Source: Euryarchaeota archaeon UBA121
Lineage (GTDB): Archaea; Thermoplasmatota; Poseidoniia; Poseidoniales; Thalassarchaeaceae
Reading direction: 5' to 3'
NCBI GenBank assembly: GCA_002499865.1
Contig: DANL01000060.1
Location: 1 to 60,439, forward strand
Length of the DNA: 60,439 bases
Shown piece after piece: positions 1,602 to 20,500 of this stretch; positions within the stretch are counted from its first letter, which is position 1, and each line of letters opens with the position of its first letter. The notes under the pieces were generated by a model, which was given only the letters and a program-made list of their open reading frames with translations, did not search any database and was not told the DNA's origin. The position numbers and the translations under genes were made by a program.

Positions 1602-1795
1602 AGAATCATAAAGAGTTGTTTCTGCTAATGCCGTAATTCATACTGAACGGAAAACTCTCCAAATCTTTCACATGAAAACTAATGATCAGTAACTTCTAGT
1701 TCTTCGAAGACGGCTTATTTCTCACGCAAAATCGTACTACACGATTACGCCAAAATAATACAAGTGTTTATCGTTGAATTTGAATAGCGCTAATC

Positions 1796-2674
1796 ATGCG
1801 AAGAGTCGTTCGAATTGTGCCAACTCACTCTGTTATGGAAGGAGGCGGTTTCAAGGTCCGAAGGCCGTATTCCACTAGCGGAATACTTAGTCCATTTCTG
1901 TTGTTGGATGAGATGGGTCCCAACATTACTGGACCAGGCGAGGCCGTGGGCGCCCCTTGGCATCCGCACAGGGGATTCGAGACGGTTACCTATCTCCTCG
2001 ATGGCCGGATGAAACACGAAGATAGTGCTGGAAATAAAGGGGAGCTCAACCCCGGAGACGTTCAGTGGATGACTGCTGGCAGAGGCATTATCCACTCCGA
2101 GTTGCCACACGATGAATTCCAGAAAACAGGCGGAAGAATCCATGGCTTCCAGATTTGGGTCAATCTCCCAGCCGAGCATAAGATGATGCCACCAAGATAT
2201 CAGGAGATTCCAGCTACCGAGTCTCCAACTATCGAAAAAGACGGAGTTTGGGCGAGAGTCATAGCAGGGGAATGCATGGGGGCCTCCTCATCGATCGACA
2301 CAGTCATACCGATTACACTTATTCACGTAAAGATGAAGGATGGAACCAAGCTCAATCAACAGATAGAAACGCAATTGAACTCGATGATATTTGTTTTTTC
2401 TGGCAAGATCGCCGTCTTCAATGAGGCCAGAGAGAAGAAATATCCACAGGTATTGGGACTTGGCATCAACCAACAGGTAAGCGATGGAGAGCTAGCTCTG
2501 CTGTCAGAAGGCCCCGAGGTAGAGATCCATTCAAAGGGGGATTCCGAATTCCTGATTCTGGCGGGTCCTGAATTGAATGAGCCTATCTCTAGACACGGCC
2601 CATTTGTGATGAATACCAAGGAAGAAATTGAACAGGCATTTAGGGATTACAGAAATGGTACGTTCGCCAACTAG
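1796..2674 (+). CDS. pirin family protein (bicupin)
   Basis: Pirin N-terminal signature: GGGFKVRRP..., PWHPHRGFETVTYLLDG, GDVQWMTAGRGIIHSE. 292 aa is the typical length. Confidence 0.9.
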   Translation: MRRVVRIVPTHSVMEGGGFKVRRPYSTSGILSPFLLLDEMGPNITGPGEAVGAPWHPHRGFETVTYLLDGRMKHEDSAGNKGELNPGDVQWMTAGRGIIHSELPHDEFQKTGGRIHGFQIWVNLPAEHKMMPPRYQEIPATESPTIEKDGVWARVIAGECMGASSSIDTVIPITLIHVKMKDGTKLNQQIETQLNSMIFVFSGKIAVFNEAREKKYPQVLGLGINQQVSDGELALLSEGPEVEIHSKGDSEFLILAGPELNEPISRHGPFVMNTKEEIEQAFRDYRNGTFAN

Positions 2675-4398
2675 TCCTCACTGAAGTCCTCTTCAGAACT
2701 CTTTCTGACTAGCCACAATCCGATGATTAACACGGTTACAGCCAAGGCAACGAGTATGGAAACCATCGGTAATCCTCCCTCTTCCACGCTTTCGACCCAT
2801 GACACAGTTTCAGAGGAAAAAGTACCTCCTCCGAATGAATCATCCGATACCAGTTGCGTCGGCGTCAGGATCTCACAATCTAGAGTATAATCTCCAGTCT
2901 CGCCCCCTCTCCAGTCGAATAGCATCTCGCCTGTCTGACCGGCATTCAGCACCAGACCTTGGAATCCACCGATATCGGCATCCAAGCCCGTCTCAACTAC
3001 ATCGCAGGAGATGTAGAAGCTAGCAGGGGCGCTTCCACTGTTCGTGAACGAGGCACGCATTGGCACGGAGCTACCCGCATAGCCCACCGGTTCCGAGACG
3101 CCCTCTTCGAGTACGATCTCCAGATTTGACCACTCTACGTGCGGAGTACTATCGCTTACGTATTGTATGTCATTCCATGAAAGGGGTATGCTGTATCCAC
3201 CGTAGTCGTCAATCCCAGAGCCATCAGGGTTCCAGCCAGTCCTGTATGAGATTATCTCAATCGTTGCAGACTCGCTCCAAATCGTCCCATTCGACCAGCC
3301 AACCTCGACCACTCTCTCTCCGCCTCCATTGACCAAGGCCTCCCCGGAGTCATCGCTGAAAGACTCGAAGGACGTGGATTCAGCAACCCCCATCCCATTG
3401 ACTTTGAAAACCACTCCTTTGGAGTCGAAAACCACCTTCTGATCCACAATCCTCCGTTCCCATCTGTCTGTGAATCCTCCGCTCCCATTGGAATTTTCCC
3501 AGGTTATCTCACTGAATCCTGTTCCTCTGACATCATGGTCATCTAGGCTGTTACTGAATGTTGAGTTAGTTATTCGGACGACAGAACCGTCCCCTAGGGA
3601 TATTATTGGTCCGACTCTATCAAAACTACTATCATTGGAAACAAGGGACCCATTTTCGCCAATGGTTAATTTGGCCCCGGTTAGGTAAGAGCTACTCATA
3701 CTCATGAGTCCGTTTACCACGATTTCAGACCCTCTAGGACCTGCCGCCATCATATTCATTCTATCAAGGTGAACTCCTTCGATTACTATCTCTGAATTGC
3801 CCACCTCAATAATTACCTCTGATACTGAAACCGAGGATTGCCCGTAGCCTATCAAGCCAATCCAAATTTCCTCATCGTCCACATCGCTGAACTCGAATGT
3901 GTGACTGCTTCCGTTTAGTGAGATTGGTTCCGAGTCGCCCACAAACGCTTGGCCTCCGTAGTAGCTGACCCCTCCAACGGAATGCATGGTCATGATGAAA
4001 TCTCCCTCTATGCCATCATTTGGGACTCTGAATGAGGCCCTGCTTTCTTCATCCCAGTAACCATATCCCATCAATCCATTGCCACAAGCCATTCCGTCTG
4101 GGTTCCCAGGCTCATCCCAGATTCCGCATTCGAGCATGGAATTATCCAGATTTAGGATTCCTCCCTCATCAACCGTGATATTACAGGTCAAGTCGACTAA
4201 TGCGTCTCTGATTGTAAGTACCCCTCCATCCATAATCCTGACGTGATCGTAATCACACGTCAACAAGCCCCCATCTGCCTCCCAAGTTACACTTGTGTCG
4301 ATGGTGGTTTCATTCTCCTGTGCGGTTGCAAATCCACTCACTACTACTAAGGACATCAACATAATCAATGCCTGAAGGACTGCTAATCTCTTGCTCAT
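2671..4398 (-). CDS. secreted acidic surface protein with a C-terminal TM anchor (function unknown)
   Basis: ATG at 4398 gives signal peptide MSKRLAVLQALIMLMSLVVVSGFATAQ (the track's TTG start at 4422 is less likely). C-terminal TM LPMVSILVALAVTVLIIGLWLV plus a charged tail. At least 8 N-X-S/T sequons. Confidence 0.7.
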   Translation of the reverse strand: MSKRLAVLQALIMLMSLVVVSGFATAQENETTIDTSVTWEADGGLLTCDYDHVRIMDGGVLTIRDALVDLTCNITVDEGGILNLDNSMLECGIWDEPGNPDGMACGNGLMGYGYWDEESRASFRVPNDGIEGDFIMTMHSVGGVSYYGGQAFVGDSEPISLNGSSHTFEFSDVDDEEIWIGLIGYGQSSVSVSEVIIEVGNSEIVIEGVHLDRMNMMAAGPRGSEIVVNGLMSMSSSYLTGAKLTIGENGSLVSNDSSFDRVGPIISLGDGSVVRITNSTFSNSLDDHDVRGTGFSEITWENSNGSGGFTDRWERRIVDQKVVFDSKGVVFKVNGMGVAESTSFESFSDDSGEALVNGGGERVVEVGWSNGTIWSESATIEIISYRTGWNPDGSGIDDYGGYSIPLSWNDIQYVSDSTPHVEWSNLEIVLEEGVSEPVGYAGSSVPMRASFTNSGSAPASFYISCDVVETGLDADIGGFQGLVLNAGQTGEMLFDWRGGETGDYTLDCEILTPTQLVSDDSFGGGTFSSETVSWVESVEEGGLPMVSILVALAVTVLIIGLWLVRKSSEEDFSED

Positions 4399-4508
4399 AG
4401 CTCTAGGGACGGTAGTTGGCAAATCAATGATTTCCCTGCTGAAGTCGGTATTGGGTCAAATACGACGGTTACCAAATCACTCATACACCGGCCACTACTG
4501 GGCAGGAC

Positions 4509-5198
4509 GTGGAAACCGTACAGACGCTTTCTGAGTCATTCAATGACTCATCATGGGGCTTCGCACTGAACATAGTCACTGTTCTGCTAATGTACGGCCC
4601 CTTCTACCTGGCCAACACTGGTGCAATGCTTTTCGGTAAGTGGATTCCAGATAAGTTCGGCTTCGATAGTATCGTAATAGATCAAGGAAGGACTCTGGGC
4701 GATGGATTCAGGGCCCTAGGGGACGGAAAGACGTGGAATGGATTCTTTGGAGGGGCTTTCTTTAGCGGTACCCTGACTCTTCTGACACACCATCTGTGGG
4801 GAGGGAGAAACGATGCTGAATCCAGACCTTTCATTGATCCGACCCTCTGGGCGACGTCCGATGACTGGTTTTGGATAGGTGGAGAATGGGGCGCGGCCTT
4901 TACCATGGGATTTGTACTCGGGATGGCCTGTATGGCTGGCGATTTGGTTGGATCCTACTTCAAGAGGAGGAAGGGCCACAAAAGAGAGGGCAATGAAAGC
5001 TCACAGGCACCTATCCTGGATACTCTGACTTTCGCAGTTGCCATATTTATCACCGCTTTCCTGCTTTTCAAAGGACAAATCATCACCAGTCCGGATTTAG
5101 TGGATGAGATAATTGTACTACTGATCTTGACCCCAGTAATTCACAGAGCGACTAATATTCTTGGATTCAAGCTTGGATTGAAGTCAGTTCCATACTGA
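4509..5198 (+). CDS. carS: CDP-archaeol synthase (CDP-2,3-bis-O-geranylgeranyl-sn-glycerol synthase)
   Basis: Matches the remembered CarS/DUF46 pattern: LGDGKTWNGFFGG, GDLVGSYFKRRKG, and the C-terminal TPVIHRATNILGFKLGLKSVPY. GTG start. Confidence 0.8.
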   Translation: METVQTLSESFNDSSWGFALNIVTVLLMYGPFYLANTGAMLFGKWIPDKFGFDSIVIDQGRTLGDGFRALGDGKTWNGFFGGAFFSGTLTLLTHHLWGGRNDAESRPFIDPTLWATSDDWFWIGGEWGAAFTMGFVLGMACMAGDLVGSYFKRRKGHKREGNESSQAPILDTLTFAVAIFITAFLLFKGQIITSPDLVDEIIVLLILTPVIHRATNILGFKLGLKSVPY

Positions 5199-5254
5199 AA
5201 ACAGCTGAACAGTAGAGTTATGCCCCGCGTGCCATGCGACCAATCATGACAGCC

Positions 5255-6523
5255 ATGTCAGTGCTGATTATCGGCTCTGGAGGAAGGGAGCATGCCTTGG
5301 CAATAGGCCTATCTCAGAGTCCCTCGGTCGGTTCAATTCACACGGCTCCAGGGAACGCAGGAACGGCCACTCTCGGAAAGAATCACCAGATTGATGTCAT
5401 GGATATCGAGGGTTTGGTCTCTCTGGCACAGGAAATATCTGCAGACTTGGTCGTTGTAGGGCCTGAAGGCCCCCTAGTAGCAGGAATTTCCGACAGGTTG
5501 AGGGAAATCGGGATTCCTAGCTTCGGGCCAGGCTCAAAGGGGGCTATGTTGGAAGGATCAAAGATCCATGCTAAGGATCTGATGGCGAAATTAGATATTC
5601 CCACCGCTGATTCTGTCAGATTAGAAAAATATTCAGATATCGAAGTTTTTCTACATGGTAATCCTCCCCCATGGGTCATCAAAAGAGACGTCCTTGCAGG
5701 GGGAAAGGGGGTTGTGGTCACGTCTGACATTGACGACGCATCGAAATTTATTTCTGATTCCATAGAGGGAGATGGGTTTGTCATAGCAGAGGAATTTCTA
5801 CAGGGGGAGGAAGCATCCTTATTGGTGCTAATGGATGAATCAGGTTATGTTTGCTTGCCTCCAAGCCAAGACCACAAGAGAGCCCTGGATGGAGATAAGG
5901 GGCCCAACACAGGAGGAATGGGCGCCTATGCCCCCGCTCCCATAGTCACTTCGTCAGTGCTTAGGAGGGCAGTAGACGAGATTGTTGAACCAATGCACCA
6001 TTACCTGAGAAACCAAGAAGACCCTTATCGAGGAGTCCTGTATGTCGGCCTAATGATCGATTCTGACGGGGCTCCCCGAGTAGTAGAGTACAATGTTAGA
6101 TTCGGAGACCCAGAAACTCAAGTCACAATTCCCCTGATAGAGGGGGATCTAGGAGAGCTCCTCCTCGCCACAGCAACAGGTAACCTTTCCAGCCTATCTC
6201 CCTCTTTTTCCGATTCACACTCAGCAACTGTTGTTCTGGCCTCGCAAGGATACCCAGAATCAACCGAAACTGGCAGAGAGATTTCTGGAGCGGACTTAGA
6301 GATAAATGAGGGGGTCTTGAGAGGGTATGTTCACTTTGCAGGAGCGTCGATGATCAGTGGCAGATTGATATCCAGCGGGGGCAGGGTGTTGGCGGCCACC
6401 GGAATAGCCCCTGATTTAACTCAGGCATTGGACGTGGCCTACCAAATTATCGACTCAATTTCCCTGGAAGGTTCACATTTTAGGACCGATATTGGACATA
6501 GGGAACTATCCCGTAGAGAGTAG
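5255..6523 (+). CDS. purD: phosphoribosylamine-glycine ligase
   Basis: N-terminus MSVLIIGSGGREHALA, ATP-grasp core, GGMGAY and NVRFGDPE motifs. Alternative upstream ATG at 5234. Confidence 0.95.
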   Translation: MSVLIIGSGGREHALAIGLSQSPSVGSIHTAPGNAGTATLGKNHQIDVMDIEGLVSLAQEISADLVVVGPEGPLVAGISDRLREIGIPSFGPGSKGAMLEGSKIHAKDLMAKLDIPTADSVRLEKYSDIEVFLHGNPPPWVIKRDVLAGGKGVVVTSDIDDASKFISDSIEGDGFVIAEEFLQGEEASLLVLMDESGYVCLPPSQDHKRALDGDKGPNTGGMGAYAPAPIVTSSVLRRAVDEIVEPMHHYLRNQEDPYRGVLYVGLMIDSDGAPRVVEYNVRFGDPETQVTIPLIEGDLGELLLATATGNLSSLSPSFSDSHSATVVLASQGYPESTETGREISGADLEINEGVLRGYVHFAGASMISGRLISSGGRVLAATGIAPDLTQALDVAYQIIDSISLEGSHFRTDIGHRELSRRE

Positions 6524-6614: not shown

Positions 6615-9600
6615 GTGAAACCAATGAACGTAAGAGAAGATGCGAAAGCAGACGGGAACTCCCTGAAGGAACTCGTGCCAGTTTCGGCCATATTGGTCGC
6701 CTTAGTGGCACTTTTCCTAGGGTCGGAGGCTTTAGCAAATGGAACAATGGAGAATGACGGGTACCTGCGAATCCTGACCCTCCCACTGGCGGCCGCACTC
6801 GCGGCGTCTTTCGGAAGGGTCCTTTCTGTTTCAGAACTCGGGATACCAAGCCATTTCAAGACTGGAGCGTTATCGATTCTTTTCATAGCAGTTTCTGCCA
6901 TCCCTGAGCTTGCTCCAGAGTTACTGGAAATTGACACCATCGTTACCTTCACATTCACATCTGTCGGAATAGCCACAATGATGCTGGTTAATTCAAACAG
7001 GAGGGAGGAGGCTAACTTACTACTAGTGGCAGTGGTGGGATTCTTCCTATCTGCATCCTTGGCCGCATCTACAGGTTTCGGATCAGAATCATGGGCCGGG
7101 ACAGATGAGGAAATGATTGACGCAGTCAGATCTTCCATGGCTTCAATTTTATTTGCATTCTGGGCTTCATCAATATCCCTCGGCTTGATGGTCGTACTCG
7201 GTATGAGGGGGACATTAGACACGGCTGGAGATGGGAAGCTATTCTCCGGAATCCCCTCATTCGACATTCAAAGTGACTCATCGAGAAAGATGATGTCAGT
7301 TTTGGCACTCGTATTTACGGTCCAGTTTATTCCGCTTGTATGGCTATGCTCTATATCCGGAGACACCATTGTAGTAGATGGAGAGGTCGTCTCAAATGCT
7401 CTGTTAAAGTACTCCGAACACCAATATCTAGGCTCGGTATGGGCCCTAATGACGGCCTTGGTGATATTCGTATGGGCGTTCTTCCGATCTGAGAGATGGC
7501 AGGTTATGGCCGCTTTGGTAGCCGTAAACTGGATTCTTTATTCAGCGGCAAGATTAGTCGAAATCGGTAATCCACTGGGCATTGAAGTACTTCCGGCAAG
7601 CTCCGGAGACAGTACTTCCGCGGCTGCTTGGTTCTTCCTGATCTTCTGGTCTAATGTTGCGGCCTACATCCTTTCAATCAGAGGATACTTCGGAGATACG
7701 GCTCCAGTTAGGGAGCATAGCGCTATGAGGGCATGGTGGAATGCTAACTACTACGGAATAATGATCTCTCTGGCTTTGTTTGTCTCTCTAGCAATCAGGA
7801 CCGGTTGGAACGTACTTCCAGCAATGAACGCCACAGGGACTCAGTTGTGGGACATGACTGGAGGTTCTGATCCATGGTACATGAAGAGGGTAATCGATTA
7901 TGTCGTAGCTGAGAGGAGCCACTTCATCTTCGACTCCGATCGCTCATACCCCATGGGTGTGATCAATCCTAGGCCACCACTTTTCTCGTGGTCCCTTGCT
8001 CTTGGTGGACTGGGCCTTAACTGGCTCACAGGATCGTCTCAGGACCAGATGGTCTGGTGGAGCGTATCTGCCATGCCAGCAATTTACGGCGCCCTAATCG
8101 TACTTCCACTGGCTGGAATTGCAAGGAGGGTACACAGTGATCTCGCTGGAGTAGTCACCGCGTGGCTTATCGCCCTAATGCCAGGTCACATCGGCCACTC
8201 CACATTCGCATTAGCTGATCACGACTCTTTCGCACTGCTGTTCATCTCGATGGCGTTCTACTTCTGGGTAAGGGCCGTCGAGGGAATAAGAGATGAAAGA
8301 CTATTCAACGAGACCAGTAGAAATCCATTGTACCTGATAGCTGGAATAAGGGAGATGTGGATGAGGAATCCAATGGTGATGTCCTGTGCCACATTATCTG
8401 GTATTTCCTTCGCTACCGTAGCATTGGGGTGGAAGGGATTCGTGTATGGTCCAGGAATCTTATTCCTAGCTTTCTCCGTACAAGCATTCCTCAATCTCTT
8501 CAGAGGCAGGGATAGCCTTCCAATCACGGCGGCAGCATTGCAGATGCTTCTCACTGCATTCGTGATTCCGTTGCCTTTCTACATGTGGCCTGGATTGGAT
8601 CTTCTTTTCGACCCCAGCGGTTTCCAACCAATGTTCTACATCATCGGATTCACATTTGCTTTGGGTTGGGTGACCTGTTCATTCAGGGACAAGCCATGGC
8701 TTCTCGTAGTTGGCAGCGGAACTGCTCTCTTCGGTGCTATCCTGCTCTCACTTTACGTCTTACAGGCACTAAACTATTACAATGGATGGGACATTCTATT
8801 CACAGGAGGATTCTACTTCTCCAAGAATAAAATATTCGGCACCATCGGTGAAGCACAGGCCCCCAGTAGAGGGGTTCTATTCGCTTCTTATGGTCCGGTA
8901 GTTTCCATAATTGCCATTTCCTGTGCAGTATATCTAATCTGGAGAGGAGCTAGAAAGGACCGCCAAAGCCACCTCCTACTAGGATCATGGACAATAGTCG
9001 CTGCTTACATGGCTTGGAGCGCTGGTAGATTCATCTTCAACGCGACGCCTGCAATGGCAGTTGTCGGCGGACTCGGGATTGCAATGCTCTGGAAAGCAGC
9101 AAATCCCGCAGATTTCCTCAAGGAATATCGCAGAGCTGGGATTGGCAACCCCTCCGCTAGGAGGAGATCGACATTCACGGCATCCAGAAGGCATCCTGGA
9201 ATACCTGCTCTGATGATGGTTTTCCTGCTAGTTGCAAGTCAGCACGCAACTTACGGCATAGACTCTGGAATTCCTCGTGGAGAAGAGGCGGCTACCGACG
9301 TCGACCAGGCTATCTACGAAATAGCCCCAGACTTCCTACGTTGGTCCATTGGAGATTTCTCAATACTTCAGGACGAAGAATATGACCCTGACTCAGGGAT
9401 GCTAAGGTACATGGGGACCTTCGGCCCAGGTTTCAATGGAGCAGATTGGAATACGGCGTATCAATGGCTTTCTGAACAGGATACAGAAGTCGGCTTCAGT
9501 GAGAGGCCTGCCTTTGTCTCATGGTGGGACTATGGTTTCCAGGCTCTCACACAGGGACAGCACCCAACTGTCGCTGATAACTTCCAGTCGGGAATTCCCC

Positions 9601-12600
9601 ACAGCGGGGGAATGCTACTATCACAGGGCCAAGAGGACACTCTAGCAATGTTCATCGCTACTCTAACCCAGGGAGATATGAGGTCAAACTCTGGAGAGAT
9701 GACATCCGAGTATCAATCAGTATTGCTCGAAAATATGGAACAATTCCAATTGGACGAGTTCCAAACTATCATGTCCATCGGCGTGGGAGACTCCCAATTA
9801 GTAATCCAGAGATCTATGCAAGTGGTCGCTAATGATGGATCGGTAGATTTACTCAGAGGATTCCAGCTAGATGAAAATGGAATCCCGTCTTCCGATGAAT
9901 CATGGGCTGTATACTTTGATACAGAGCCTTATCTGGAAGAATCTAACGAATCAACAGCGAAATCATCTTTCGATGAGGCCAGAGGAAGGGCGAGTGAGTA
10001 CGACCAAGAAACTACTCACTATATGATTGGAAACTACAGATACACCAGCGATCTAATCGAGGACTTTGACGACGTGTCAACGGGACTCCACAGGCAGAAC
10101 TCGAAACTAGCGATGGCGAGGGCTTTCCTAGTTCAGGCATTTAGCATGGAAGAATTGGTGGACCTATATCACCAGATTACAACAGAGGTATTCTATGATG
10201 TGCAAGACTACGAGGCAGGCCTCGGTGTCACCACTGAGAGGAACAATGATATCAGATATTTTGCAGTAGATAACAGACTCTACCCATTGGGCGGTTCTTA
10301 TTATGCCGACTACAACTACCATAGGGGACAGACCACTGGGATCTTCCATGCGCCAACTGGATTATCGGGGTTAGATCTAGATGACTACATCTCCACTCTT
10401 TATCAGACTCAGAGGGGTGTAGACGGTCCGATTATTCTCAGGACTGCCGATGAATATGAGCAGGAATATCTCAATGATGTAGTAAGGCAGCAGTCAGGTG
10501 CCGCAGCCGACGCCAGCGAAATGATACAGATGGTAGACATAGATTACAACCATCAGGACGCTTTCTTCGACACGATGGTTGCTAGGACATACGTCGGATA
10601 TGGGTCTTCTTCACTGGGCCTACCCGGTGACGCATCACAACCAGCCCCTCACTTCTACATGTACGGCACCCCAGGGTCCTACCTAGAGCCCGGTATCCCT
10701 ATGCCCGGGGCTATGATGAATCACATGGTCCTGGCGAACTGGTACGAACTTCCTTGTGAATTGAACCAAGATGGGGAGAAGATTGATGATAATTGCAACG
10801 ATCCTACCATAGGGTCCGCTAACACACAAGTAAAGATTCTGAAGTACTACAGCGGAGCCACCCTTTCTGGAACCGTTGAACTAGAAGGAGTCGGGCCAGT
10901 GCCAAACGCGAGGCTCCTCATCGAAAGAGACGCTTTCAGCGGAGAAGAAGTCGCCGATGAGATAACAGGGATGGTGACAGACAGAGACCCTAGGACGTAC
11001 TGGATTCCAATCGGAACCACGGACGCAGACGAGAACGGAATGTTCGAGTTTACCGTACCTGCTGGAAAGATCAAGGTTACCGCATTCTTCGGAGAGCCCA
11101 ACTTAGAACAGGCTAGGTCAACAATGATGACAGGTACATACAGTATGACCGAGATCCTCACAGAAGAGAATGAAGAATCCAGGGAGCTAAATCCTGTAAC
11201 AGGAATTCTGGGTAATGTCTCAGGATCTACATGGCTAACTGAGGAGATTGTAAATATTTCAGCATTCGATGGCCATTCCAATGGCGAGGAAGTAATCGAA
11301 ATATCGCTATCTGTCGAGTCTGCCCAAGCTACCGGTCAATTAGTCTGGGCATCTATCGAAGAGTACGATGGAACGGCCATCACAGGGTCCACGGTAGAAC
11401 TAGTGCCACAGTGGGACGAGATTGATATCTCCCCATACTACGCATCTACTTCTGATGGTGAAGTCTCCGGAGAGGGACTTTCATTCAATGGAATCGGGCA
11501 AGTAGAGTTCACAGGACAAGGAACGGTTCAGACAACATCGATCTCAACTATCACAGATTTCACTGGAAACTACACGCAGGAGATTAAGCATAATCACACC
11601 CTTGTCGGAGAGGGGCTATTCGAAGGACGGGGTTCTCTCAGCGGTACTATCAACTTCAACTCAGATGAAGACTCACAAATTTCAGAATGTGGGGATAATG
11701 ACACTATGCCAGAAAACCTCTCGTTCTGCGAGTTATCCTCAGGCGCCCTCTTGATAGATGGGTCAGTAAACGCCACTGGAAGGTACACTTCTAACGGGTC
11801 CACAGAATTTACCCAGAGACTCAGCCACTCTTCACTGGTGGGATCAGGGATCTTTGAGACCGATACTTCCGAAGAGTTAGATCACTATGGAACAATAAAC
11901 GGTACCGGAAAATTCTCCGGAGATGGAATATTCAGTGGACCTATGGTCCAAGCAGGTACGTTCCATCTTAGAGACATGATTCCTGGAATTTACTCTGTAA
12001 CCGCTATCCTCGATGATGGGACCAGAGTTGAGCTAGATGACTCATTCACCGTCCCATCCGCGATTAATCAGGTACAAAAGATTGACATCCAAGGCAGTTT
12101 AATCAGTGGGAAGCTAATCAATTCGTCAGGTGAAGTAGTTGACGGCTATGCAGCTTTACTAGATGACTCGTCAGAGTTTGAGGACGCAACAGCCGACTGT
12201 GCAGACTCGGGACACGCTCCATGTAGGATGTATCCGAATGAAATGGGAGACTATGGAGTCGGCCCCCTTCCTCCTGGAAATTACTCAGTAGCAATCGATG
12301 TAGACCAAGACGGATTCTTCGAAATAATTGAAGAGTTCCCATTCGATTCTGAGATTTATGCAAACGTATTGGTCCCATCTCCTATTCCAGAGATGTTCGA
12401 CCTCAATTTTGAGATGATCAATGAAGGTTCGAACGTTCCCGATCTGAACGTTTCACTTTCCAAGGCAGATGGAGACTCTATGCCCGTGAGCGCAATTTAT
12501 TCTGTAGAAGACGGAGAATACCAAATCGAGCTTACACCGGGCGAATGGATAGTAGACTATGCCCTGTCCGACTCCAAGCAGGTCTGGGAAGAATTCGAAG

Positions 12601-15600
12601 TTTCGTCTGACATGAGTATGCAATTTGAATTCGTAACCAGTGTAGAAGTTACAGGAACGGTCTACTACGAAGAGAACTCCTCAGCATCGTTCAATCCAGA
12701 TGATGGAAAGGTCATTGGAGCAGATACCGTGATCAGCTTCGTATGGGAAGGATTCTCTACGACTGCTATGACAAATGAATCAGGCCAGTTTACAGTAACT
12801 CTCCCTGAAGGAGCAGTAGTTGACGCTACTGTAGAGGGACTGATAGCCGGCTTGGTCAACGGTACTAAGTTCACTGTCTCGACTGGAATGGAGGATATTG
12901 TAATGGTAGCCACACCTGGAACGAATGTTTTCGGTCTAGTCAGTGTCTCAAGAGCGAATAACTTCTACTCCTCCGACCTAATCGGTTGGCAGCAACTAAC
13001 GGTGACAGCTCAAAACGAAAACTATGACGTCACATGGAGAAAATCAGTGGATAATCTTGGAAAGTTCCAGATGATTCTCCCTGATGGGGAATGGACATTC
13101 GAGATAGTTGACTCGGACATCGCCTACTCTCCGGTGACCAAGTCCATAGATTCTGAGAACTTCTCTGTAGAGATGATACTCTCCCCTCCCAATGGGACAC
13201 TTTCCCTTGAGATGTTTATGGATGATTCAGGAGATCTAAACTCCTCAAATGGTACACCAGTATCATATGATTTCGAGATTGTACCATCTTCTCAGGCAGG
13301 CATGGGCAAGAATGTAACATATGACGGATCTGAGTGGATCAGTGAGGGACTAGCTCAAGTCTCACTCGAACCGGGATCTTACAGCGTGATAGTATCCATT
13401 TCCGATGCCACAGAAGGCGATCTATTCGGAACCATGCTGTCTTCGCAAGTAGTACCTTTCGATATTCCTCTTCAAGGAGGATCAGTGGACAGGATTGCCG
13501 CTTTCTTACCTGAGTGGAGAGTTAGTGTCTCACTTACAAATCAGTTCGGAGGAGTCCTCTCGAATCAGGACTTCAAACTAATTAACACCGAAACAGGATG
13601 GACACAGACGCATACTACAGACGCCAACGGAAGCTGGGCCGATCACATCATTCAGGGTGATTGGATTTTGAGTGTAGAATCTCTCATTAACAGCGAGGGG
13701 GCAACGGAAACACTCAGGGCACATATTGTGTCATCACCTGAAACCGCATCGACAGATCTCTCCCTTTCGACGATTGAGGCCGCATCGGTTTCAATTAGCC
13801 TGACTGAGACTTTAGGGGCACCACTCGAAGGAAAGCGAATTGTGGCGGCATCAGATGAGGGGCTCGGAGAAGTCGACTTAACTCCAACGAACTCATCCGG
13901 GATTTCCGAAATACAGCTATTCCCTGGAAACTGGATCATGTCAATGGAAAACGAGGAAGACGGCATAATGTGGATTCTCGAATCTAATGATGTAGTACTT
14001 TCATCCGGAGATAACGGGCAGTTGAATTTCACAGCTGATCGATTCGCAGAAGTCAGTGGCAATGTCTTCTGGGACTTGAACGATAACGGCGTTTACAATA
14101 TCGGAGAAGGGATCAACAATGCTACTTTCGCCATCCTTCCAGGAACTTGTGACGAAAATTCATCCAGCGATTCTACAGTCGTTCAAAACTCAGATAATTC
14201 TGGGGCTTGGTCATCATTCGAGGCCGTAGGGGGTGACTACTGTCTAGAGGTATCAGCACAAGGATTCTCCGACATATCTCAAGAAATCGAGCTAGGAAAC
14301 TCTTCCTTGGAAATAGACTCGATGATGATGGCTGAATTAGTTCAGGTAGGCGGCCAAATTTCGTTTATCGACGCGGATCAATTCTCATCAGTCTCAGACA
14401 CATTGCTGCTGGAGTTAATACCAACATCTGATTACGTCAGAGATACAATCTCTCCGGTAAAGACGATCGTGGACGGAGATTGGAATGGAAACTGGACTGC
14501 CTCAGTCGAACCAGGCGAATGGATAATCAGAGCTTTCTCAGAAGAATTAGGCTTGGTGGCCATGTCTATGGTCAAGGCCGAAGTAATAGATGGGGGTTAC
14601 TCAGACATGGATCTAGCTACGGGAGGATGGGCACTGATTGAGACGCAATGGTTCGATTATGAGGGCGTGTCAATGACTCTGGCAGACATAGATAAACCCG
14701 AACTAAACATCAATCTAGGAGCTGGTATTTCTTGGATCGCAAATCTTGATGAAGAGGGATCGATTAGGGTACTTCTCCCGAGTGGGATTATTGATGTCTC
14801 AAGTGAATTCACTACCTTACAGAGAGGATTGAACATGACTTATTCCGGAGGTCAGGCAATAGGCGTGGAAGCTAGTCAGGAGACCCCGGCCATAACAGTC
14901 TCCCATTCTAGGATACCATTCCGAGATCTTTCGTTGAATGTGATAGGATCAGTAGGAGGGGATGTAGGCCATGATGGCGGAATTTCAGATCTACTTGTAA
15001 CTAAAGATAACGAATCAATGGGATTCAATCCTGTGGAGTTCACCCTCTCTGCTGACTATCTTGGCCATGAGCCTCTGGATACATTCTCTGCTCAGGCCAC
15101 TGTACCGGGTACTGATGGTTCAGAATGGCAGGTTGAGTTCCATAACGGATCAGGAGTGTGGAACACCTCGATGTCCTTTGACTTGGGATTGGATAATTCT
15201 CTCAGTACCTCTGACATCCATGTCAAAGTTACACCTCCAAACCAATCAGTTGCACATTCATTGACGCAGGGACATTCAATTATCCTAAGCTTCTTCACAT
15301 CAGGCGGGTACTCTGAAGAGATTAACGTAAAGGTCAGGATACCACAAATCCATGACTTCTCAGTAGTCTCATTAGATCCGCTCTACGGAGTCTCTCCGGG
15401 TGAGGAAATACAGATACCTCTGCAAATCAGAAACGATGGAAACGGAGACGACAGGTATGTGTTTGATTTCGACGACTCAGAGTTACCCGATGGGTGGGAG
15501 AGAACCGGGTCTACTTCTCATACTCTACCTCCATTTACTACCACTACTCACAGCATCAATGTGATCGCACCAGATAATGCAACAGGCGAATACACGATAT

Positions 15601-16139
15601 ATGCTACTGTAGCTGACAAAGCAGGAAACTCTTACCCAGAGATAGAAATCAATGTTGCCATATCCAATCCAGTGATCTCTATCACATCCCAGCAACTTCT
15701 CTCGGGAGGAGACAATGCAGTTTCTAACAGAGTCAACTCCTGGGTCGTTACTGTTGCCAATGAGGGGCTTGTCGATGCAGAGGATGTTGAGCTAAATGTA
15801 ATACTCTGCAATGACTTGACTTGCCAAAGTGAGGTAATAATGGATACCGAGCTAGGTGATGTTCCAGCCAACTCAGTAGTGAACTTCGACATCAGACTGG
15901 ACCTAGACGGGATCGATCCTGGTAACTACTACCTTAACTTGGAGATCAATGAATCTTCGGTAGAAGGCGAAGTGGTACCATTCGAACCAAATCAGGGAGG
16001 GAGTGTCAATCTAGTAGTTTCTTCACCTGCAGTGGAGTCTGACTCTAGTTGGATTGGCTACATCCTAGGGGGGCTAATCATTGCCGCACTGGCAATGCTG
16101 ACAAGACCCCGCTCAAGAAGGCCAAACGCTCCATTCTGA
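6615..16139 (+). CDS. aglB: giant dolichyl-phosphooligosaccharide-protein glycotransferase (AglB/STT3) fusion protein, 3174 aa
   Basis: Single uninterrupted ORF (GTG at 6615, ATG at 6624). STT3 motifs are DPWY (7869-7880), DHD (8217-8225) and WWDYG (9522-9536), set in a multi-TM region. The C-terminal half is beta-sandwich repeats ending in TM WIGYILGGLIIAALAMLT plus RPRSRRPNAPF. Confidence 0.85.
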   Translation: MKPMNVREDAKADGNSLKELVPVSAILVALVALFLGSEALANGTMENDGYLRILTLPLAAALAASFGRVLSVSELGIPSHFKTGALSILFIAVSAIPELAPELLEIDTIVTFTFTSVGIATMMLVNSNRREEANLLLVAVVGFFLSASLAASTGFGSESWAGTDEEMIDAVRSSMASILFAFWASSISLGLMVVLGMRGTLDTAGDGKLFSGIPSFDIQSDSSRKMMSVLALVFTVQFIPLVWLCSISGDTIVVDGEVVSNALLKYSEHQYLGSVWALMTALVIFVWAFFRSERWQVMAALVAVNWILYSAARLVEIGNPLGIEVLPASSGDSTSAAAWFFLIFWSNVAAYILSIRGYFGDTAPVREHSAMRAWWNANYYGIMISLALFVSLAIRTGWNVLPAMNATGTQLWDMTGGSDPWYMKRVIDYVVAERSHFIFDSDRSYPMGVINPRPPLFSWSLALGGLGLNWLTGSSQDQMVWWSVSAMPAIYGALIVLPLAGIARRVHSDLAGVVTAWLIALMPGHIGHSTFALADHDSFALLFISMAFYFWVRAVEGIRDERLFNETSRNPLYLIAGIREMWMRNPMVMSCATLSGISFATVALGWKGFVYGPGILFLAFSVQAFLNLFRGRDSLPITAAALQMLLTAFVIPLPFYMWPGLDLLFDPSGFQPMFYIIGFTFALGWVTCSFRDKPWLLVVGSGTALFGAILLSLYVLQALNYYNGWDILFTGGFYFSKNKIFGTIGEAQAPSRGVLFASYGPVVSIIAISCAVYLIWRGARKDRQSHLLLGSWTIVAAYMAWSAGRFIFNATPAMAVVGGLGIAMLWKAANPADFLKEYRRAGIGNPSARRRSTFTASRRHPGIPALMMVFLLVASQHATYGIDSGIPRGEEAATDVDQAIYEIAPDFLRWSIGDFSILQDEEYDPDSGMLRYMGTFGPGFNGADWNTAYQWLSEQDTEVGFSERPAFVSWWDYGFQALTQGQHPTVADNFQSGIPHSGGMLLSQGQEDTLAMFIATLTQGDMRSNSGEMTSEYQSVLLENMEQFQLDEFQTIMSIGVGDSQLVIQRSMQVVANDGSVDLLRGFQLDENGIPSSDESWAVYFDTEPYLEESNESTAKSSFDEARGRASEYDQETTHYMIGNYRYTSDLIEDFDDVSTGLHRQNSKLAMARAFLVQAFSMEELVDLYHQITTEVFYDVQDYEAGLGVTTERNNDIRYFAVDNRLYPLGGSYYADYNYHRGQTTGIFHAPTGLSGLDLDDYISTLYQTQRGVDGPIILRTADEYEQEYLNDVVRQQSGAAADASEMIQMVDIDYNHQDAFFDTMVARTYVGYGSSSLGLPGDASQPAPHFYMYGTPGSYLEPGIPMPGAMMNHMVLANWYELPCELNQDGEKIDDNCNDPTIGSANTQVKILKYYSGATLSGTVELEGVGPVPNARLLIERDAFSGEEVADEITGMVTDRDPRTYWIPIGTTDADENGMFEFTVPAGKIKVTAFFGEPNLEQARSTMMTGTYSMTEILTEENEESRELNPVTGILGNVSGSTWLTEEIVNISAFDGHSNGEEVIEISLSVESAQATGQLVWASIEEYDGTAITGSTVELVPQWDEIDISPYYASTSDGEVSGEGLSFNGIGQVEFTGQGTVQTTSISTITDFTGNYTQEIKHNHTLVGEGLFEGRGSLSGTINFNSDEDSQISECGDNDTMPENLSFCELSSGALLIDGSVNATGRYTSNGSTEFTQRLSHSSLVGSGIFETDTSEELDHYGTINGTGKFSGDGIFSGPMVQAGTFHLRDMIPGIYSVTAILDDGTRVELDDSFTVPSAINQVQKIDIQGSLISGKLINSSGEVVDGYAALLDDSSEFEDATADCADSGHAPCRMYPNEMGDYGVGPLPPGNYSVAIDVDQDGFFEIIEEFPFDSEIYANVLVPSPIPEMFDLNFEMINEGSNVPDLNVSLSKADGDSMPVSAIYSVEDGEYQIELTPGEWIVDYALSDSKQVWEEFEVSSDMSMQFEFVTSVEVTGTVYYEENSSASFNPDDGKVIGADTVISFVWEGFSTTAMTNESGQFTVTLPEGAVVDATVEGLIAGLVNGTKFTVSTGMEDIVMVATPGTNVFGLVSVSRANNFYSSDLIGWQQLTVTAQNENYDVTWRKSVDNLGKFQMILPDGEWTFEIVDSDIAYSPVTKSIDSENFSVEMILSPPNGTLSLEMFMDDSGDLNSSNGTPVSYDFEIVPSSQAGMGKNVTYDGSEWISEGLAQVSLEPGSYSVIVSISDATEGDLFGTMLSSQVVPFDIPLQGGSVDRIAAFLPEWRVSVSLTNQFGGVLSNQDFKLINTETGWTQTHTTDANGSWADHIIQGDWILSVESLINSEGATETLRAHIVSSPETASTDLSLSTIEAASVSISLTETLGAPLEGKRIVAASDEGLGEVDLTPTNSSGISEIQLFPGNWIMSMENEEDGIMWILESNDVVLSSGDNGQLNFTADRFAEVSGNVFWDLNDNGVYNIGEGINNATFAILPGTCDENSSSDSTVVQNSDNSGAWSSFEAVGGDYCLEVSAQGFSDISQEIELGNSSLEIDSMMMAELVQVGGQISFIDADQFSSVSDTLLLELIPTSDYVRDTISPVKTIVDGDWNGNWTASVEPGEWIIRAFSEELGLVAMSMVKAEVIDGGYSDMDLATGGWALIETQWFDYEGVSMTLADIDKPELNINLGAGISWIANLDEEGSIRVLLPSGIIDVSSEFTTLQRGLNMTYSGGQAIGVEASQETPAITVSHSRIPFRDLSLNVIGSVGGDVGHDGGISDLLVTKDNESMGFNPVEFTLSADYLGHEPLDTFSAQATVPGTDGSEWQVEFHNGSGVWNTSMSFDLGLDNSLSTSDIHVKVTPPNQSVAHSLTQGHSIILSFFTSGGYSEEINVKVRIPQIHDFSVVSLDPLYGVSPGEEIQIPLQIRNDGNGDDRYVFDFDDSELPDGWERTGSTSHTLPPFTTTTHSINVIAPDNATGEYTIYATVADKAGNSYPEIEINVAISNPVISITSQQLLSGGDNAVSNRVNSWVVTVANEGLVDAEDVELNVILCNDLTCQSEVIMDTELGDVPANSVVNFDIRLDLDGIDPGNYYLNLEINESSVEGEVVPFEPNQGGSVNLVVSSPAVESDSSWIGYILGGLIIAALAMLTRPRSRRPNAPF
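7869..9536 (+). other. STT3 catalytic core of the AglB fusion (first-loop DPWY motif to the WWDYG motif)
   Basis: Motif positions verified in frame with the 6615 start: D419-P-W-Y, D535-H-D, W970-W-D-Y-G. Confidence 0.8.
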
Positions 16140-16181: not shown

Positions 16182-17417
16182 ATGCCTGCCCTAGATAGAT
16201 TGGAGCTCATGCCCGAGCCAGAGGATCCTAGGCTACTCACTACCGTTGACCCTAGAGCACCAGGATATCCAGGTTCTGCCTATGGTATGTCCGATGAAGA
16301 GGCTAGAAGACTTCGTTGGCCCTTGGATCCGCTAAAGGAGGCCTTGTGGCCTTGGGGAGCAGTATTCTTCTCACTGGGAACTGTCGCTCTTCTACTAGCT
16401 TGGCCTTTTGTCGATTCCTACTTGGCCCCACTTCTCCCAGATTCAGAGTGGGCATATGAGTCTACGGGGATAAGGGAGCTTCAGGATGGAGGTCTGACTG
16501 GCGAAGGGGTATCAGTTTGTATTGTAGATACTGGTATGGATATACGCCATCCAGATCTCTCAGGAATAAATTTGGCAGGTTTCAGAGATTTCTTTGATGA
16601 GAGTAACCAAGAGGTTAAAGACGTAGGATCAGAATTCCACGGCACCATGATGACAGGGATTTTGGCTTCCAACGGTACCTTCCTCGGAGCCGCTCCCGGG
16701 GCTTCTATTTCCATTGCTTTGGCACTTGGCCCGGAAGGATCTTCCGGCCAACAGGATAGAGTCTCGCTGGCAATTAGGTGGTGTAGGATTACTCAAGAAG
16801 CTGATATTATCAGTCTTAGCCTTGGTTCAGACCCAGGTCAAGGAATGGGTATCGAAACTGAGACAGTAACCGCAGTTCAAGAGGCTCTAGAAGAAGGAAT
16901 CTTCGTCATAGCAGCCGCGGGAAACACCGGTTCAGAATCTTCTGATGTATCCGTGCCTGCAAATATTCAGGGCGTAATAGCCGTAGGGGCGTACAGAAGT
17001 TCGGGGGATATTTGGGGAGATAGCGCTTCAGGTTCCAACATCGACCCTTACAGTGGACAGCCAAGAGAGTATCCTCATCAGAAGCCTGAGATTATAGCTC
17101 CAGGAGTGAACATATTTTCCACATCTTCCACAGAACTCGATCCGTCCTACGCATATTCATCAGGTACTAGCGACTCTACCGTCTTTGTAACTGGGGCTCT
17201 GGCGCTTATTCTGGAGCAATATGGAGATGCCATAGCAGGGGAAGACGGAAAAATAGATCTAGAGGAGATGAGCATGGTAAAGAGGGCACTAGCTAACTCA
17301 GCAAACCAAGACCCCTCCTCCTCGGGGAACCATAGCTCTAGATTGGGATACGGGTCCCTGAATTCGGTTGAATGGGCTAACCAACTCTCTTTTGAGCTTA
17401 ATATCGACGTTCAGTAA
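16182..17417 (+). CDS. membrane-anchored subtilisin-like serine protease (peptidase S8)
   Basis: Catalytic motifs VCIVDTGMD (Asp), HGTMMTGILAS (His), AAAGNTGS (Asn), SSGTSDSTVFVTGALAL (Ser). N-terminal TM WGAVFFSLGTVALLLAWPFV. Confidence 0.85.
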   Translation: MPALDRLELMPEPEDPRLLTTVDPRAPGYPGSAYGMSDEEARRLRWPLDPLKEALWPWGAVFFSLGTVALLLAWPFVDSYLAPLLPDSEWAYESTGIRELQDGGLTGEGVSVCIVDTGMDIRHPDLSGINLAGFRDFFDESNQEVKDVGSEFHGTMMTGILASNGTFLGAAPGASISIALALGPEGSSGQQDRVSLAIRWCRITQEADIISLSLGSDPGQGMGIETETVTAVQEALEEGIFVIAAAGNTGSESSDVSVPANIQGVIAVGAYRSSGDIWGDSASGSNIDPYSGQPREYPHQKPEIIAPGVNIFSTSSTELDPSYAYSSGTSDSTVFVTGALALILEQYGDAIAGEDGKIDLEEMSMVKRALANSANQDPSSSGNHSSRLGYGSLNSVEWANQLSFELNIDVQ

Positions 17418-17504
17418 TGGACGTCACATACAATTGAGCGATAATGGATTCTGATGACCTAACAATCTTGTTTCCTCTAACATTATATCCGCTCCCGATA
17501 CCCC

Positions 17505-20500
17505 GTGGCTATGGCCCGCAGAGATAGATTGAGCTCGACTATTCTAGTAATGTTGATGCTAACCAGTGTTTTCATCGCACTAGTAGGCCCCGCGTCCCCT
17601 GTAGCCGCTTCGAATGAGACCACTTCAGGAACAATAACTGGAACCGAGTACTGGCAAGGAAACCATGTACTTACAGGGGACGTAGTAATCTCATCTGGAG
17701 CTAAATTGGTCATCCAACCCAGTACTAATGTGATTTTTCCAAACGGTACCCATTTGGATGCCAGGGGTAGCCTGTGCATAGGAGTGTCTTCTTGTGGGGC
17801 CAGCGGAAACGCTAATTCTGCTCAGAAAATCACATTCAGCTGGGAGGAACCTGAAAATTCCAGTGCCCAAGGCGAATGTAATGGAATTTCGCAGGGACAA
17901 TTCGAAATTACGATCACCGACCCTTCCTGCTATGAAGGGCTTATCATCAGAGACTCAATTGACCTGTCACAGTCCGGAATCAGGCACACTACTCTAGATG
18001 GTGCATGGGGAATTCCACACTTTGTCGATAACCAAAATGGATTCAAATATGCCGCCCTAGTTCTAGATGGGGCTAGTCCCACACTGACGGAAATGGAGTT
18101 TATCGATATCAACTCCAGTAGCGTTCTAACCACGGGACTCGCTCAACCAGAGTTCATCGGAGGGCAGTATACCGTAGGGAATGATGATGAGAGTGGAGTG
18201 GATGGTCCTGCAGTTCAGATATACAGCTCCGGAACCCCTATCACTCCATTGATCATGTCTTCGCCAGATCTAATCGGTTCTGATAATGGATGCGGGAATA
18301 ATGCTGGAGGCAAGCCAACTGTCTGGGTCGAAGACGCATTCATTGAGATTGATGATGCAGAGATCGGAGTCGGGGATTATGGGATTTCACTGAGATATTC
18401 TTCTGGTTCAGTAACCAACTCAGAGATTTCCGTCAACTGTAACGGTATTGATATTTACAGTCTAAAGAGCGTGGGACAGATTGACTATTACAATACAATC
18501 ACAGGAAACGAGATTGTTACGAATGACAGAACCCCAATCACTGTGTATGGCGGGGCTCATGCTTTTATCAGAGATAACGAACTATCGGGAGCTGGAAGTG
18601 GAAGTGGTATTGCCGTCTTCTCCAGCTATGCGGAGATAACGAACAATGACATTGGACCAATTGGCGGGTGGAACGGACTCTGGATGTACGGGTCTTTTGA
18701 TGTAATTGCTGAAAATAATACGATCTTCGACACTAATAGGGAGGCCATTATCGCTGGAGAGTACGGGAGCAACGCTCCCGCTCCGAGCGCGTCTAGGGCG
18801 TTCCTTGCAAACAACACCATTTCATCTTCTGGCCAAGGAGATTGCACCAGTAATATCCACTTCAACGGGCAGTTCACCTGTCCTGCAGTGATGGCATACA
18901 GGTCCGGACTGACAATGTATGACAACGAAATTAATTCCGGAGGCGAGTCTGATGGAATCAGGTCGATTGGAGCGTTGCTGGACATCAGGAGGAATACATG
19001 GAACGCCGCGGGCTCAGGAGCCGTAATCAAACACTATGATTCAGGATATGCAGGAGACCAACAATACGGGTCTCTAGCTTTCTTCTCTGAGAATACTTGG
19101 AATGGAGTTGGTACTACCTACAATATCACGAAGAGCTCAGTAACCGTACAATCGGAATCTATCCCCAGTCCTCCCACTGGACAGTTTCCAGTGATTCTCT
19201 CGTGGCCGGATCAGGAGGCATGGCCAGCCAATGGTTTCCAGAATGGGATCATACCCACAGACGTTCAAGAGTGCTCCAACTGTGATAATCTCACGCCTAG
19301 GAATTTCCCACTAGCGCTTTCCATGGATAATAACTCCACAGTGATGACTTTTGCTGGTCTGGCCAATCTAGACAGGTCATCTATCTCAATCCAAACCCAA
19401 CCGACTCCCTATGCAGTACAGGTCAGAAGAGCCGAGCTAGTCAAGTTCCAAGCTCTGGTCAACGGAGAGAGGGTCCCGGGTGCCAGTATCCTCATCGAGG
19501 ACGCTCTCGGGAACGATATGTATGATATCGATACCCTTTCCGATGGATATACCCCATGGTTCGCCCTCCCCTCGGACTTCCACCTTGACTTCAGAGGATT
19601 GGGAGGGGGCGACAACCCAGATGGATTCGCAGATGACGAATTCGAGGACTCCTGCTCAGATGGAATAGACAACGATGGAGACCTTCTAATGGACGCGGAC
19701 GATACTGATTGCGACTATACTGCAGGTACTAGAGAGCTCTCTCTATACCGATTCACCGCCTATAAGTTCGGATTCGGATTGGATAGCGGACAATTCACAT
19801 TAGATGACTCTTCATACCAGGGAACTGCGAATCTACTAAATCTGGCGCCCTCTGTTTCCGTCACACAAGACCAAGGCCACTCTTTCAGAAAGGTAGTGAA
19901 TATCACTGGCAACGCTCATGATGGAATTCTCGCCTCATTCTACCCAAGTGATGAAATGGCACAGTGGGATCAGAAAGGATTCGTCCATTCAATCGAAGTT
20001 AGAGACCCATTCACAAGCGGTTGGTCAGATGCACAACTTGCCATCGACTCATCTGGCTCACAATATGGGGAAGTAACTAGTACTAACCATCCTTTCAAAG
20101 AATGGTACTATGAATTGGATATGTCTCAAATGGCCGAAGGAGACTATGTTTTCCAGTTCCGAGCATTCGACGGAATCGACTATAGCCCGATTTCCACTAT
20201 CACCATCAAGCTCAATTCTCAGGCCCCTACTGTCTCGGTAAGCTCTCCAAGTCCATTCTCTACTCACTCTGATGACACAGTGACATTCGAGGGTGCTGCC
20301 TATGATTACTACGGGTGCCCTTCACAATGTGGCAAGGATATCACTGAGATTTATTTCCAAATTGTGGGTCCCAATTTCCAAGTTGTTACACCTGTCTCTG
20401 GAGGTACAGCTTGGTCATGGACATGGGACTTCAGTGGCCAACCCCGAGTAGTGGCGGACTATACTTTCAAGATATGGGCCTCAGACTCCGACTTCTGTAA

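Follow-up and report, generated by a model that had tools for sequence, protein, structure and literature searches.

Positions 6615-16139 of a 60,439-nucleotide stretch from Euryarchaeota archaeon UBA121 (contig DANL01000060.1; the whole stretch is called the window below) carry a giant aglB gene whose product, as read from its sequence, is very probably the active AglB of the Poseidoniales lineage, encoded as one gene. AglB, the STT3-type oligosaccharyltransferase (OST) of archaea, is the hallmark enzyme of their N-glycosylation; to our knowledge every characterised AglB has roughly 600 to 1,050 residues. The present protein is predicted to have 3,171 or 3,174: its STT3 core is preceded by a module of extra transmembrane (TM) helices and followed by a long extracellular array of beta-sandwich units that ends in a second membrane anchor. 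The best explanation of the protein as a whole, which we hold with fair though not high confidence, is an active AglB that has its own glycosylated ecto-scaffold built in.

The gene is the sole long open reading frame (ORF) of its region, runs on the plus strand without interruption and opens with a GTG. Its true start is probably the ATG at codon 4 (nt 6624), which is the one used by the homologs in the alignment, and which yields 3,171 aa, the length of the closest protein in the databases (98% identity). Searching with the protein brought up more than 120 homologs that are full-length and collinear, with 3,122 to 3,305 aa and identities down to 38%; all those that are named come from metagenome-assembled genomes (MAGs) of Marine Group II (MGII), Poseidoniales or Thermoplasmatota. 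In a scan of GTDB with one genome per species, 465 stretches were found to encode a relative, and the locus counts given below refer to the best 80 of these, which are all Poseidoniales. A closed ORF of 3,147 to 3,346 codons with the terminal ...APF was present at 52 of the 80 loci, including three single-cell genomes (SAGs L031, L045 and L079) and long-read MAGs (L048, L049) whose contigs measure 0.7-1.6 Mb. Most of the remaining loci are cut off by the end of a contig, and the ORF is interrupted in only 4 (L017, L028, L042 and L068). Measured against two close relatives, the ratio of non-synonymous to synonymous substitution rates (dN/dS) was 0.005-0.12 in each of nine regions of the gene: 0.07-0.10 in the N-terminal module, 0.04-0.12 in the array and lowest, 0.005-0.03, in the catalytic parts. 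We conclude that giant aglB is one real gene, under purifying selection over its whole length. A frameshift, a chimera or a recent accidental fusion is excluded by the closed ORFs in independent assemblies, taken together with the collinear homologs and the low dN/dS. A sequence-only reading of the same DNA had described this ORF as uninterrupted and had named a frameshift, stop or chimeric join splitting it as the finding that would overturn that view; the 52 intact ORFs, SAGs and long-read MAGs included, speak for the uninterrupted frame.

The wider family was collected by an exhaustive HMMER search with aa 378-1450 as the query (E<1e-30), which gave 251 cluster representatives. Besides the Poseidoniales tier of ~3,150-3,200 aa, a large second tier of 2,000-2,800 aa was found, with 28-38% identity to the query core. 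In nearly all of the ~85 tier-2 giants examined, WWDYG stands near residue 570-800, and one additional TM helix with a basic tail closes the C-terminus. Among the named members are proteins from Thermoplasmata MAGs, a 2,093-aa protein of Caldiplasma sukawensis (Cuniculiplasmataceae; WP_458329147.1) and, in a finished genome, the 2,076-aa TVG1271204 of Thermoplasma volcanium GSS1 (BAB60377.1, UniRef100_Q979C6). These second-tier proteins are uncharacterised, and their database labels are OST, GT39 or 'carboxypeptidase regulatory-like domain-containing protein'. With these two tiers as a guide, the parts of the gene can be laid out as follows.

6615-16139, plus strand: whole giant aglB ORF (3,174 codons with the GTG as start, 3,171 aa with the ATG)
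6615-7748, plus strand: N-terminal module, aa 1-378, with ~10 TM helices (hydropathy, positive-inside rule, homolog alignment)
7749-9104, plus strand: STT3 (GT-C) TM catalytic domain, aa 379-830 (family profiles, alignment to Archaeoglobus fulgidus AglB)
7869-7880, plus strand: DPWY, first DXD-type site, G-S-D419 (aligned to D47 of A. fulgidus AglB)
8217-8225, plus strand: DHD, second DXD, D535-H-D537 (aligned to D161/H163 of A. fulgidus AglB)
8841-8852, plus strand: TIGE, the TIXE motif, T743-I-G-E746 (motif and position)
9105-9656, plus strand: external catalytic domain, part 1, aa 831-1014, with WWDYG and then an invariant D988-N-F-Q (matches 81 of 81 tier-2 giants)
9522-9536, plus strand: WWDYG, residues 970-974 (aligned to the WWDYG of A. 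fulgidus AglB, AglB-S and human STT3A)
9657-10319, plus strand: alpha/beta domain inserted between WWDYG and the YFAVDNRLYPLGG...TTGIFHAP segment, aa ~1015-1235 (AlphaFold2, alignments)
10320-10832, plus strand: external catalytic domain, part 2, aa 1236-1406, with a candidate DK/MI-equivalent segment (66 of 81 tier-2 proteins match)
10833-16046, plus strand: extracellular array of diverged beta-sandwich units, aa ~1407-3144, ~1,730 aa (Pfam matches, sequons, dN/dS)
11472-11984, plus strand: G-x-G-x-F/L repeats, aa 1620-1790, with invariant Gly/Phe columns and an invariant Cys pair (ISECGDNDTMPENLSFC) (homolog alignment)
aa ~2914-3100, plus strand: CARDB-like units (CARDB, PF07705)
16047-16103, plus strand: C-terminal TM anchor, aa 3145-3163 (hydropathy)
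16104-16139, plus strand: cytoplasmic tail RPRSRRPNAPF and stop codon (homolog alignment)

The identity of the core was established with family profiles and alignments. Pfam STT3 (PF02516) matched aa 417-819 with 43.5 bits against a cutoff of 24.5; the lack of any such match was the other result by which the sequence-only reading could have fallen. The best-scoring curated model was NCBIfam archaeo_STT3 (TIGR04154; E=1e-49, aa 383-1007), and the best PDB match of the family profile was A. fulgidus AglB (E=9e-11). The first STT3 helix is predicted at aa 382-400 and is followed by the external loop that bears D419. The pair D535-H-D537 aligns with D161-H-H163 of the A. fulgidus enzyme and with D-N-E of human STT3A. 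Residues D419, D535, D537, T743-E746 and W970-G974 are invariant in 59 sequences, down to ~50% identity to the query in this part. Three of the STT3 hallmarks, DPWY, DHD and WWDYG, had already been placed by the sequence-only reading, at exactly these coordinates and in the correct order. TIGE is a fourth hallmark that was absent from its list; it stands between the predicted TM helices 697-715 and 754-772, and was assigned from its motif and position, not from a structural alignment.

Downstream of WWDYG, the external catalytic domain is split by the inserted domain, which is ~220 aa long, in good agreement with the ~230 aa first estimated between WWDYG and YFAVDNRLY. In an AlphaFold2 model of aa 930-1480, residues ~1009-1209 form a confident alpha/beta domain, with a predicted local distance difference test score (pLDDT) of 85-96; a Foldseek search of the PDB with the whole model found nothing significant (best E=0.44). 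The tier-2 Thermoplasmata giants share no more than the final ~80 aa of the insertion. The conserved segment YFAVDNRLYPLGG...HRGQTTGIFHAPT (aa ~1214-1250) comes after the insertion, at the position expected for the DK/MI motif, which forms the Ser/Thr pocket. The same region carries a curiosity in another genome: a Thermoplasmata-type giant STT3 gene (L081, 2200-2800) has a single in-frame TGA inside the conserved stretch, after YFAIDSRLIPFS and before QNTGIFYAP, and the frame resumes beyond it. Conservation is high at the junction between core and array (aa ~1380-1420), which belongs to the catalytic ectodomain and is common to the tier-2 giants.

At the other end of the core, the first 378 aa proved to be something other than STT3. 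The sequence-only reading of the ORF as an AglB/STT3 protein with an array and an anchor is sustained, but it had left out this extra module, for which hydropathy and the positive-inside rule predict 10 TM helices with the N-terminus inside (15 K+R in even loops versus 3 in odd loops). Invariant positions in the module are E131, R172, R198, E293, W295, W306, G318, W339, F344 and R372; among them E131, R172, R198, E293, W295, W306 and R372 are read from the sequence as buried and polar. A Pfam scan of 16 modules produced no consistent match for it. Internal duplication of the STT3 TM domain was considered as its source and rejected, as hhalign shows no similarity between the two. No stand-alone homolog turned up either, the profile search giving only fragments of giant aglB itself. 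The module was matched in 0 of 81 Thermoplasmata giants, and on these sequence comparisons it is specific to Poseidoniales.

The array accounts for more than half of the protein. CarboxypepD_reg (PF13620) scored 41.6 bits (cutoff 32.3), a sum over several weak units, and CARDB (PF07705) scored 23.0 bits on the whole protein and 29.5 bits on aa 2801-3174 (cutoff 22.7), which is marginal. The ~1,750 aa of beta-sandwich units that had been announced after STT3 are thus recovered, marginally so for CARDB. An SdrD_B-like unit had been announced as well, and this one was not reproduced: SdrD_B (PF17210) gave no match at E<=0.1 in the window protein, the GNVFWDLNDNG unit included. PF17210 is recorded on homologs P0012-P0014 and P0031, and on the Thermoplasmata giant P0140. 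The G-x-G-x-F/L run at aa 1620-1790, which no Pfam model matches, may form a beta-solenoid-like segment, to judge by its repeat pattern. The array is acidic (D+E 15.8%, K+R 3.1%), and it is fixed in length, collinear and almost free of indels across Poseidoniales. Recent tandem repeat expansion was rejected as its origin: the units are mutually diverged, and similarity is weak and confined to a few of them. Sequons are twice as frequent as composition predicts (38.8 per homolog versus 19.5 expected), and 92-100% of homologs keep those at N1547, N1719, N1762 and N2212. No other protein of the window is as enriched in sequons, while the catalytic ectodomain is sequon-depleted. The enrichment is consistent with a glycosylated ectodomain; the sequence-only reading had suggested self-glycosylation, or a place for the enzyme in a surface stalk or adhesin, as possible functions.

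The protein ends as the sequence-only reading had said, in a TM helix with a positively charged tail, so that both ends lie in the membrane. The RR-x-x-APF-COOH terminus is kept in 110 of 118 full-length homologs, and the terminal Phe in 117 of 118. This ending is found in no other ORF of the window and is absent from the Thermoplasmata giants. An archaeosortase signal (PGF-CTERM and relatives) was considered and rejected: no NCBIfam model of this kind matches, SSPAVESDSSW precedes the helix, and the element that is conserved lies at the very end of the chain. The RR-x-x-APF tail may be a cytoplasmic docking peptide. The predicted topology is, in order, an inside N-terminus, 10 extra TM helices, the STT3 TM domain, an ectodomain of ~2,300 aa, one TM helix and an 11-aa basic cytoplasmic tail. 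The TM domain of solved STT3 proteins has 13 helices. Adding the 10 extra ones and the C-terminal anchor, the giant AglB appears to have about 24.

From this anatomy, and from the metal- and sequon-binding roles of the STT3 motifs as described for A. fulgidus AglB (PMC8342417), a mode of action can be proposed. By family knowledge, D419, D535/D537 and E746 would serve the STT3 core in binding a divalent metal and a glycan linked to dolichol-(pyro)phosphate. The Asn-X-Ser/Thr sequon would be read by the TIGE and WWDYG elements, and the glycan would be transferred to the Asn on the outer face of the membrane. The anatomy suggests that the array would stay attached and, being tethered at its far end, would form an arch or loop over the membrane, itself heavily N-glycosylated. 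It could then be a built-in spacer or scaffold, holding the active site within the envelope and close to emerging substrates, in a role which by analogy may be comparable to that of the lumenal accessory subunits of eukaryotic OST, or of NOMO-type bead-on-a-string spacers. That the array is a scaffold is, taken by itself, a tentative suggestion from sequence features. Other membrane or cytoplasmic components probably dock on the N-terminal 10-TM module and on the RRPxAPF tail. A bolder version, which we think unlikely, has the giant AglB as a self-contained OST machine whose array, glycosylated in cis, would be a principal envelope glycoprotein of MGII and, more widely, of wall-less Thermoplasmata: the array would make up a glycocalyx or canopy, either attached or released by the co-conserved membrane subtilase, and the 10-TM module and RRPxAPF tail would couple the machine to the glycan supply or to the secretion apparatus.

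Several observations weigh against an active AglB with an ecto-scaffold. The score against TIGR04154, 169.5 bits, is far below the 450-bit cutoff for membership. In the DK/MI region neither DxxKxxx(M/I) nor MxxIxxx(I/V/W) could be assigned, and the structural model has low confidence there; more generally, outside the insertion the external domain is poorly modelled (mean pLDDT 61). The scaffold role is proposed from architecture and conservation only, and no experiment on any giant AglB was found in the literature.

The genes around aglB bear on the alternatives. A block at 2671-6523 and 16182-21734 of the window is kept in 53-73 of the 80 Poseidoniales loci. It consists, in order, of a 583-aa C-terminally anchored protein (minus strand), CarS (CDP-archaeol synthase), PurD, aglB, an S8 subtilase and a surface protein, the last two being:

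16182-17417, plus strand: membrane-anchored S8 subtilase, 411 aa, 42 nt downstream of aglB (54 loci)
17505-21734, plus strand: surface protein, 1,409 aa; signal peptide, beta-helix, Ig domains, C-terminal TM anchor (53 loci)

A glycosylation gene island was considered and rejected, the neighbours being core housekeeping genes and envelope proteins; no glycosyltransferase island was found in the window, the rest of which is housekeeping. In coastal metatranscriptomes, an MGIIb gene annotated aglB is enriched while the genus is active (PMC9723583). In an MGIIb MAG, gene 305 (aglB) goes up together with gene 307, which is unnamed and whose rise is not significant (PMC9723583, supplementary file 6).

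The main rival to an AglB that keeps its array is a polyprotein: a single chain would be cleaved outside the membrane, for instance by the S8 subtilase, into an AglB of ordinary size and a C-terminally anchored, heavily glycosylated surface protein, and the fusion would secure 1:1 production and cis-glycosylation. We consider this improbable, if the most serious of the alternatives. It would fit with the subtilase and the surface protein that follow aglB (at 54 and 53 of 80 loci), and with the contrast between the most sequon-enriched part of the window and a sequon-depleted catalytic ectodomain. The STT3 protein of Picrophilus torridus was also detected in an experimental secretome (PMC8345856). 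However, the synteny with a protease is circumstantial, no split version as two adjacent genes was found, and the junction at aa ~1380-1420 is no variable linker but a conserved part of the catalytic ectodomain that the tier-2 giants have in common. A 749-aa protein (P0191), the one homolog that looked short, was considered as evidence of a split gene and discarded, since its gene is again the long one, with a single in-frame TGA.

An adhesin, or an arm capturing particles or polymers as substrates, with the AglB part as a mere membrane anchor, is somewhat less probable still. The Ig-like, CARDB-like and CarboxypepD_reg-like units are typical of surface adhesins, and MGII genomes encode many large surface proteins. 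Adhesins are, however, usually variable, expanded by repeats and free at their tip, whereas this array is tethered at both ends, is made of mutually diverged units that were not recently duplicated, and is under strong purifying selection. A variable adhesin is disfavoured because the array has a fixed length, is collinear across the order with almost no indels, and shows low dN/dS.

In a third alternative the STT3 part would be inactive, the protein purely structural, and N-glycosylation the work of another enzyme. The low score against the curated archaeal AglB subfamily model and the unrecognised DK/MI motif would agree with such a pseudo-enzyme, but all metal- and sequon-binding residues are invariant in the 59 sequences, and dN/dS reaches its lowest values in the catalytic parts, which makes this very unlikely. 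Finally, an assembly or gene-calling artefact, that is a chimeric join or a missed frameshift bringing together aglB and a separate surface gene, has only the unusual length and the 4 interrupted ORFs of 80 to recommend it, and can be practically dismissed in view of the 52 independent closed ORFs, which come from different studies and include SAGs and long-read assemblies, and of the same architecture in the finished T. volcanium genome. An active AglB carrying its own glycosylated ectodomain is the reading that we retain.

Other genes of the window deserve a brief mention. At 21805-24333, adjoining the envelope block, an 842-aa protein combines an N-terminal helix-turn-helix with a STAND/AAA_16 NTPase and TPR repeats (MalT-like). 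The 1,912-aa ORF at 25323-31061 has no Pfam match at E<=1e-4, is acidic (D+E 18.8%) and moderately sequon-enriched, and is probably another large surface protein. One 328-aa ORF (31977-32963) joins a pyroglutamyl peptidase (Peptidase_C15) to a NUDIX domain. A second large subtilase of 1,579 aa lies at 52162-56901 and contains S8, CARDB and Ig-like domains; unlike the AglB array, it is sequon-depleted (0.49 times expected).

How new is the giant AglB? Its unusual size, stressed by the sequence-only reading, stands in comparison with characterised AglBs; its novelty is weaker than was thought, as orthologs are already deposited and a shorter version is standard in Thermoplasmata. Hundreds of orthologs are present in public databases under the names STT3, OST or 'dolichyl-phosphooligosaccharide-protein glycotransferase', and many more are filed as hypothetical, GT39 or 'carboxypeptidase regulatory-like'. 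A full-text literature search, whose coverage leaves out most subscription journals, found no description of giant AglBs from MGII or Thermoplasmata. The novelty lies in the undescribed architecture: the enzyme itself is well known, and the order that carries this form is ecologically dominant. MGII archaea, which are uncultured, count among the most abundant ones in surface ocean waters. It appears that all of them have an AglB of 3,170 residues, while the version in cultured Thermoplasmatales, their relatives, has 2,100. This raises the question of why the enzyme became one chain with a large glycosylated surface array in a clade where a conventional cell wall is often missing. There is also a practical side, as orthologs labelled 'hypothetical', 'GT39' or 'carboxypeptidase regulatory-like' would escape surveys of N-glycosylation.

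Among known systems, the AglBs described by TIGR04154 (haloarchaeal and methanogen enzymes, associated with archaeosortase A) provide the best curated model, yet the window protein is not a member of that family and has no PGF-CTERM-type signal. The structurally characterised archaeal oligosaccharyltransferase is AglB-L of A. fulgidus (PDB 3WAJ, 5GMY and 7E9S; deposited chain of 875 residues). Both proteins have the STT3 TM catalytic domain, with GGsDPWY here for GGNDPWY (D47), aLaDhD for FNDHH (D161/H163), TIGE for TIAE in the TIXE motif, and an identical WWDYG. They differ in that the window protein is ~3.6 times longer, has DNFQ in place of the A. fulgidus DGGK-region residues, and adds 10 N-terminal TM helices, the ~220-aa insertion, the ~1,730-aa array, a second anchor and the conserved tail.

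A likeness of function, with no homology claimed, can be drawn with eukaryotic OST (STT3, ribophorins, OST48) and with the lumenal NOMO spacers, where large extracytoplasmic parts rich in beta-sandwiches and carrying a single C-terminal TM helix stand beside the STT3 active site; the giant AglB differs in being a single polypeptide. No NOMO or ribophorin match was obtained in the window protein at E<=0.1. In one Thermoplasmata giant AglB (P0194), Pfam NOMO_5th, a transthyretin-like domain, matches aa 2219-2251 with E=3e-10. The layout of P0194, a CarboxypepD_reg array followed by a C-terminal TM helix and a short tail, is NOMO-like, and offers a lead on the origin of the spacer or on an analogy.

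The closest comparison is with the Thermoplasmata giants themselves. They have the same STT3 core, an enlarged external domain, both halves of the catalytic ectodomain, an array of CarboxypepD_reg type, and one C-terminal TM helix with a basic tail; they are without the 378-aa N-terminal module, most of the insertion and the RRPxAPF terminus, and are ~400-1,100 aa shorter. Because the tier-2 giants share the core, the array units and the C-terminal anchor, the doubly anchored giant AglB is, on the predicted architecture, a class-level trait of Thermoplasmata, of which the window protein is the largest and most elaborated form by the same comparison. Cultured Thermoplasma thus opens a way into the envelope architecture of MGII.

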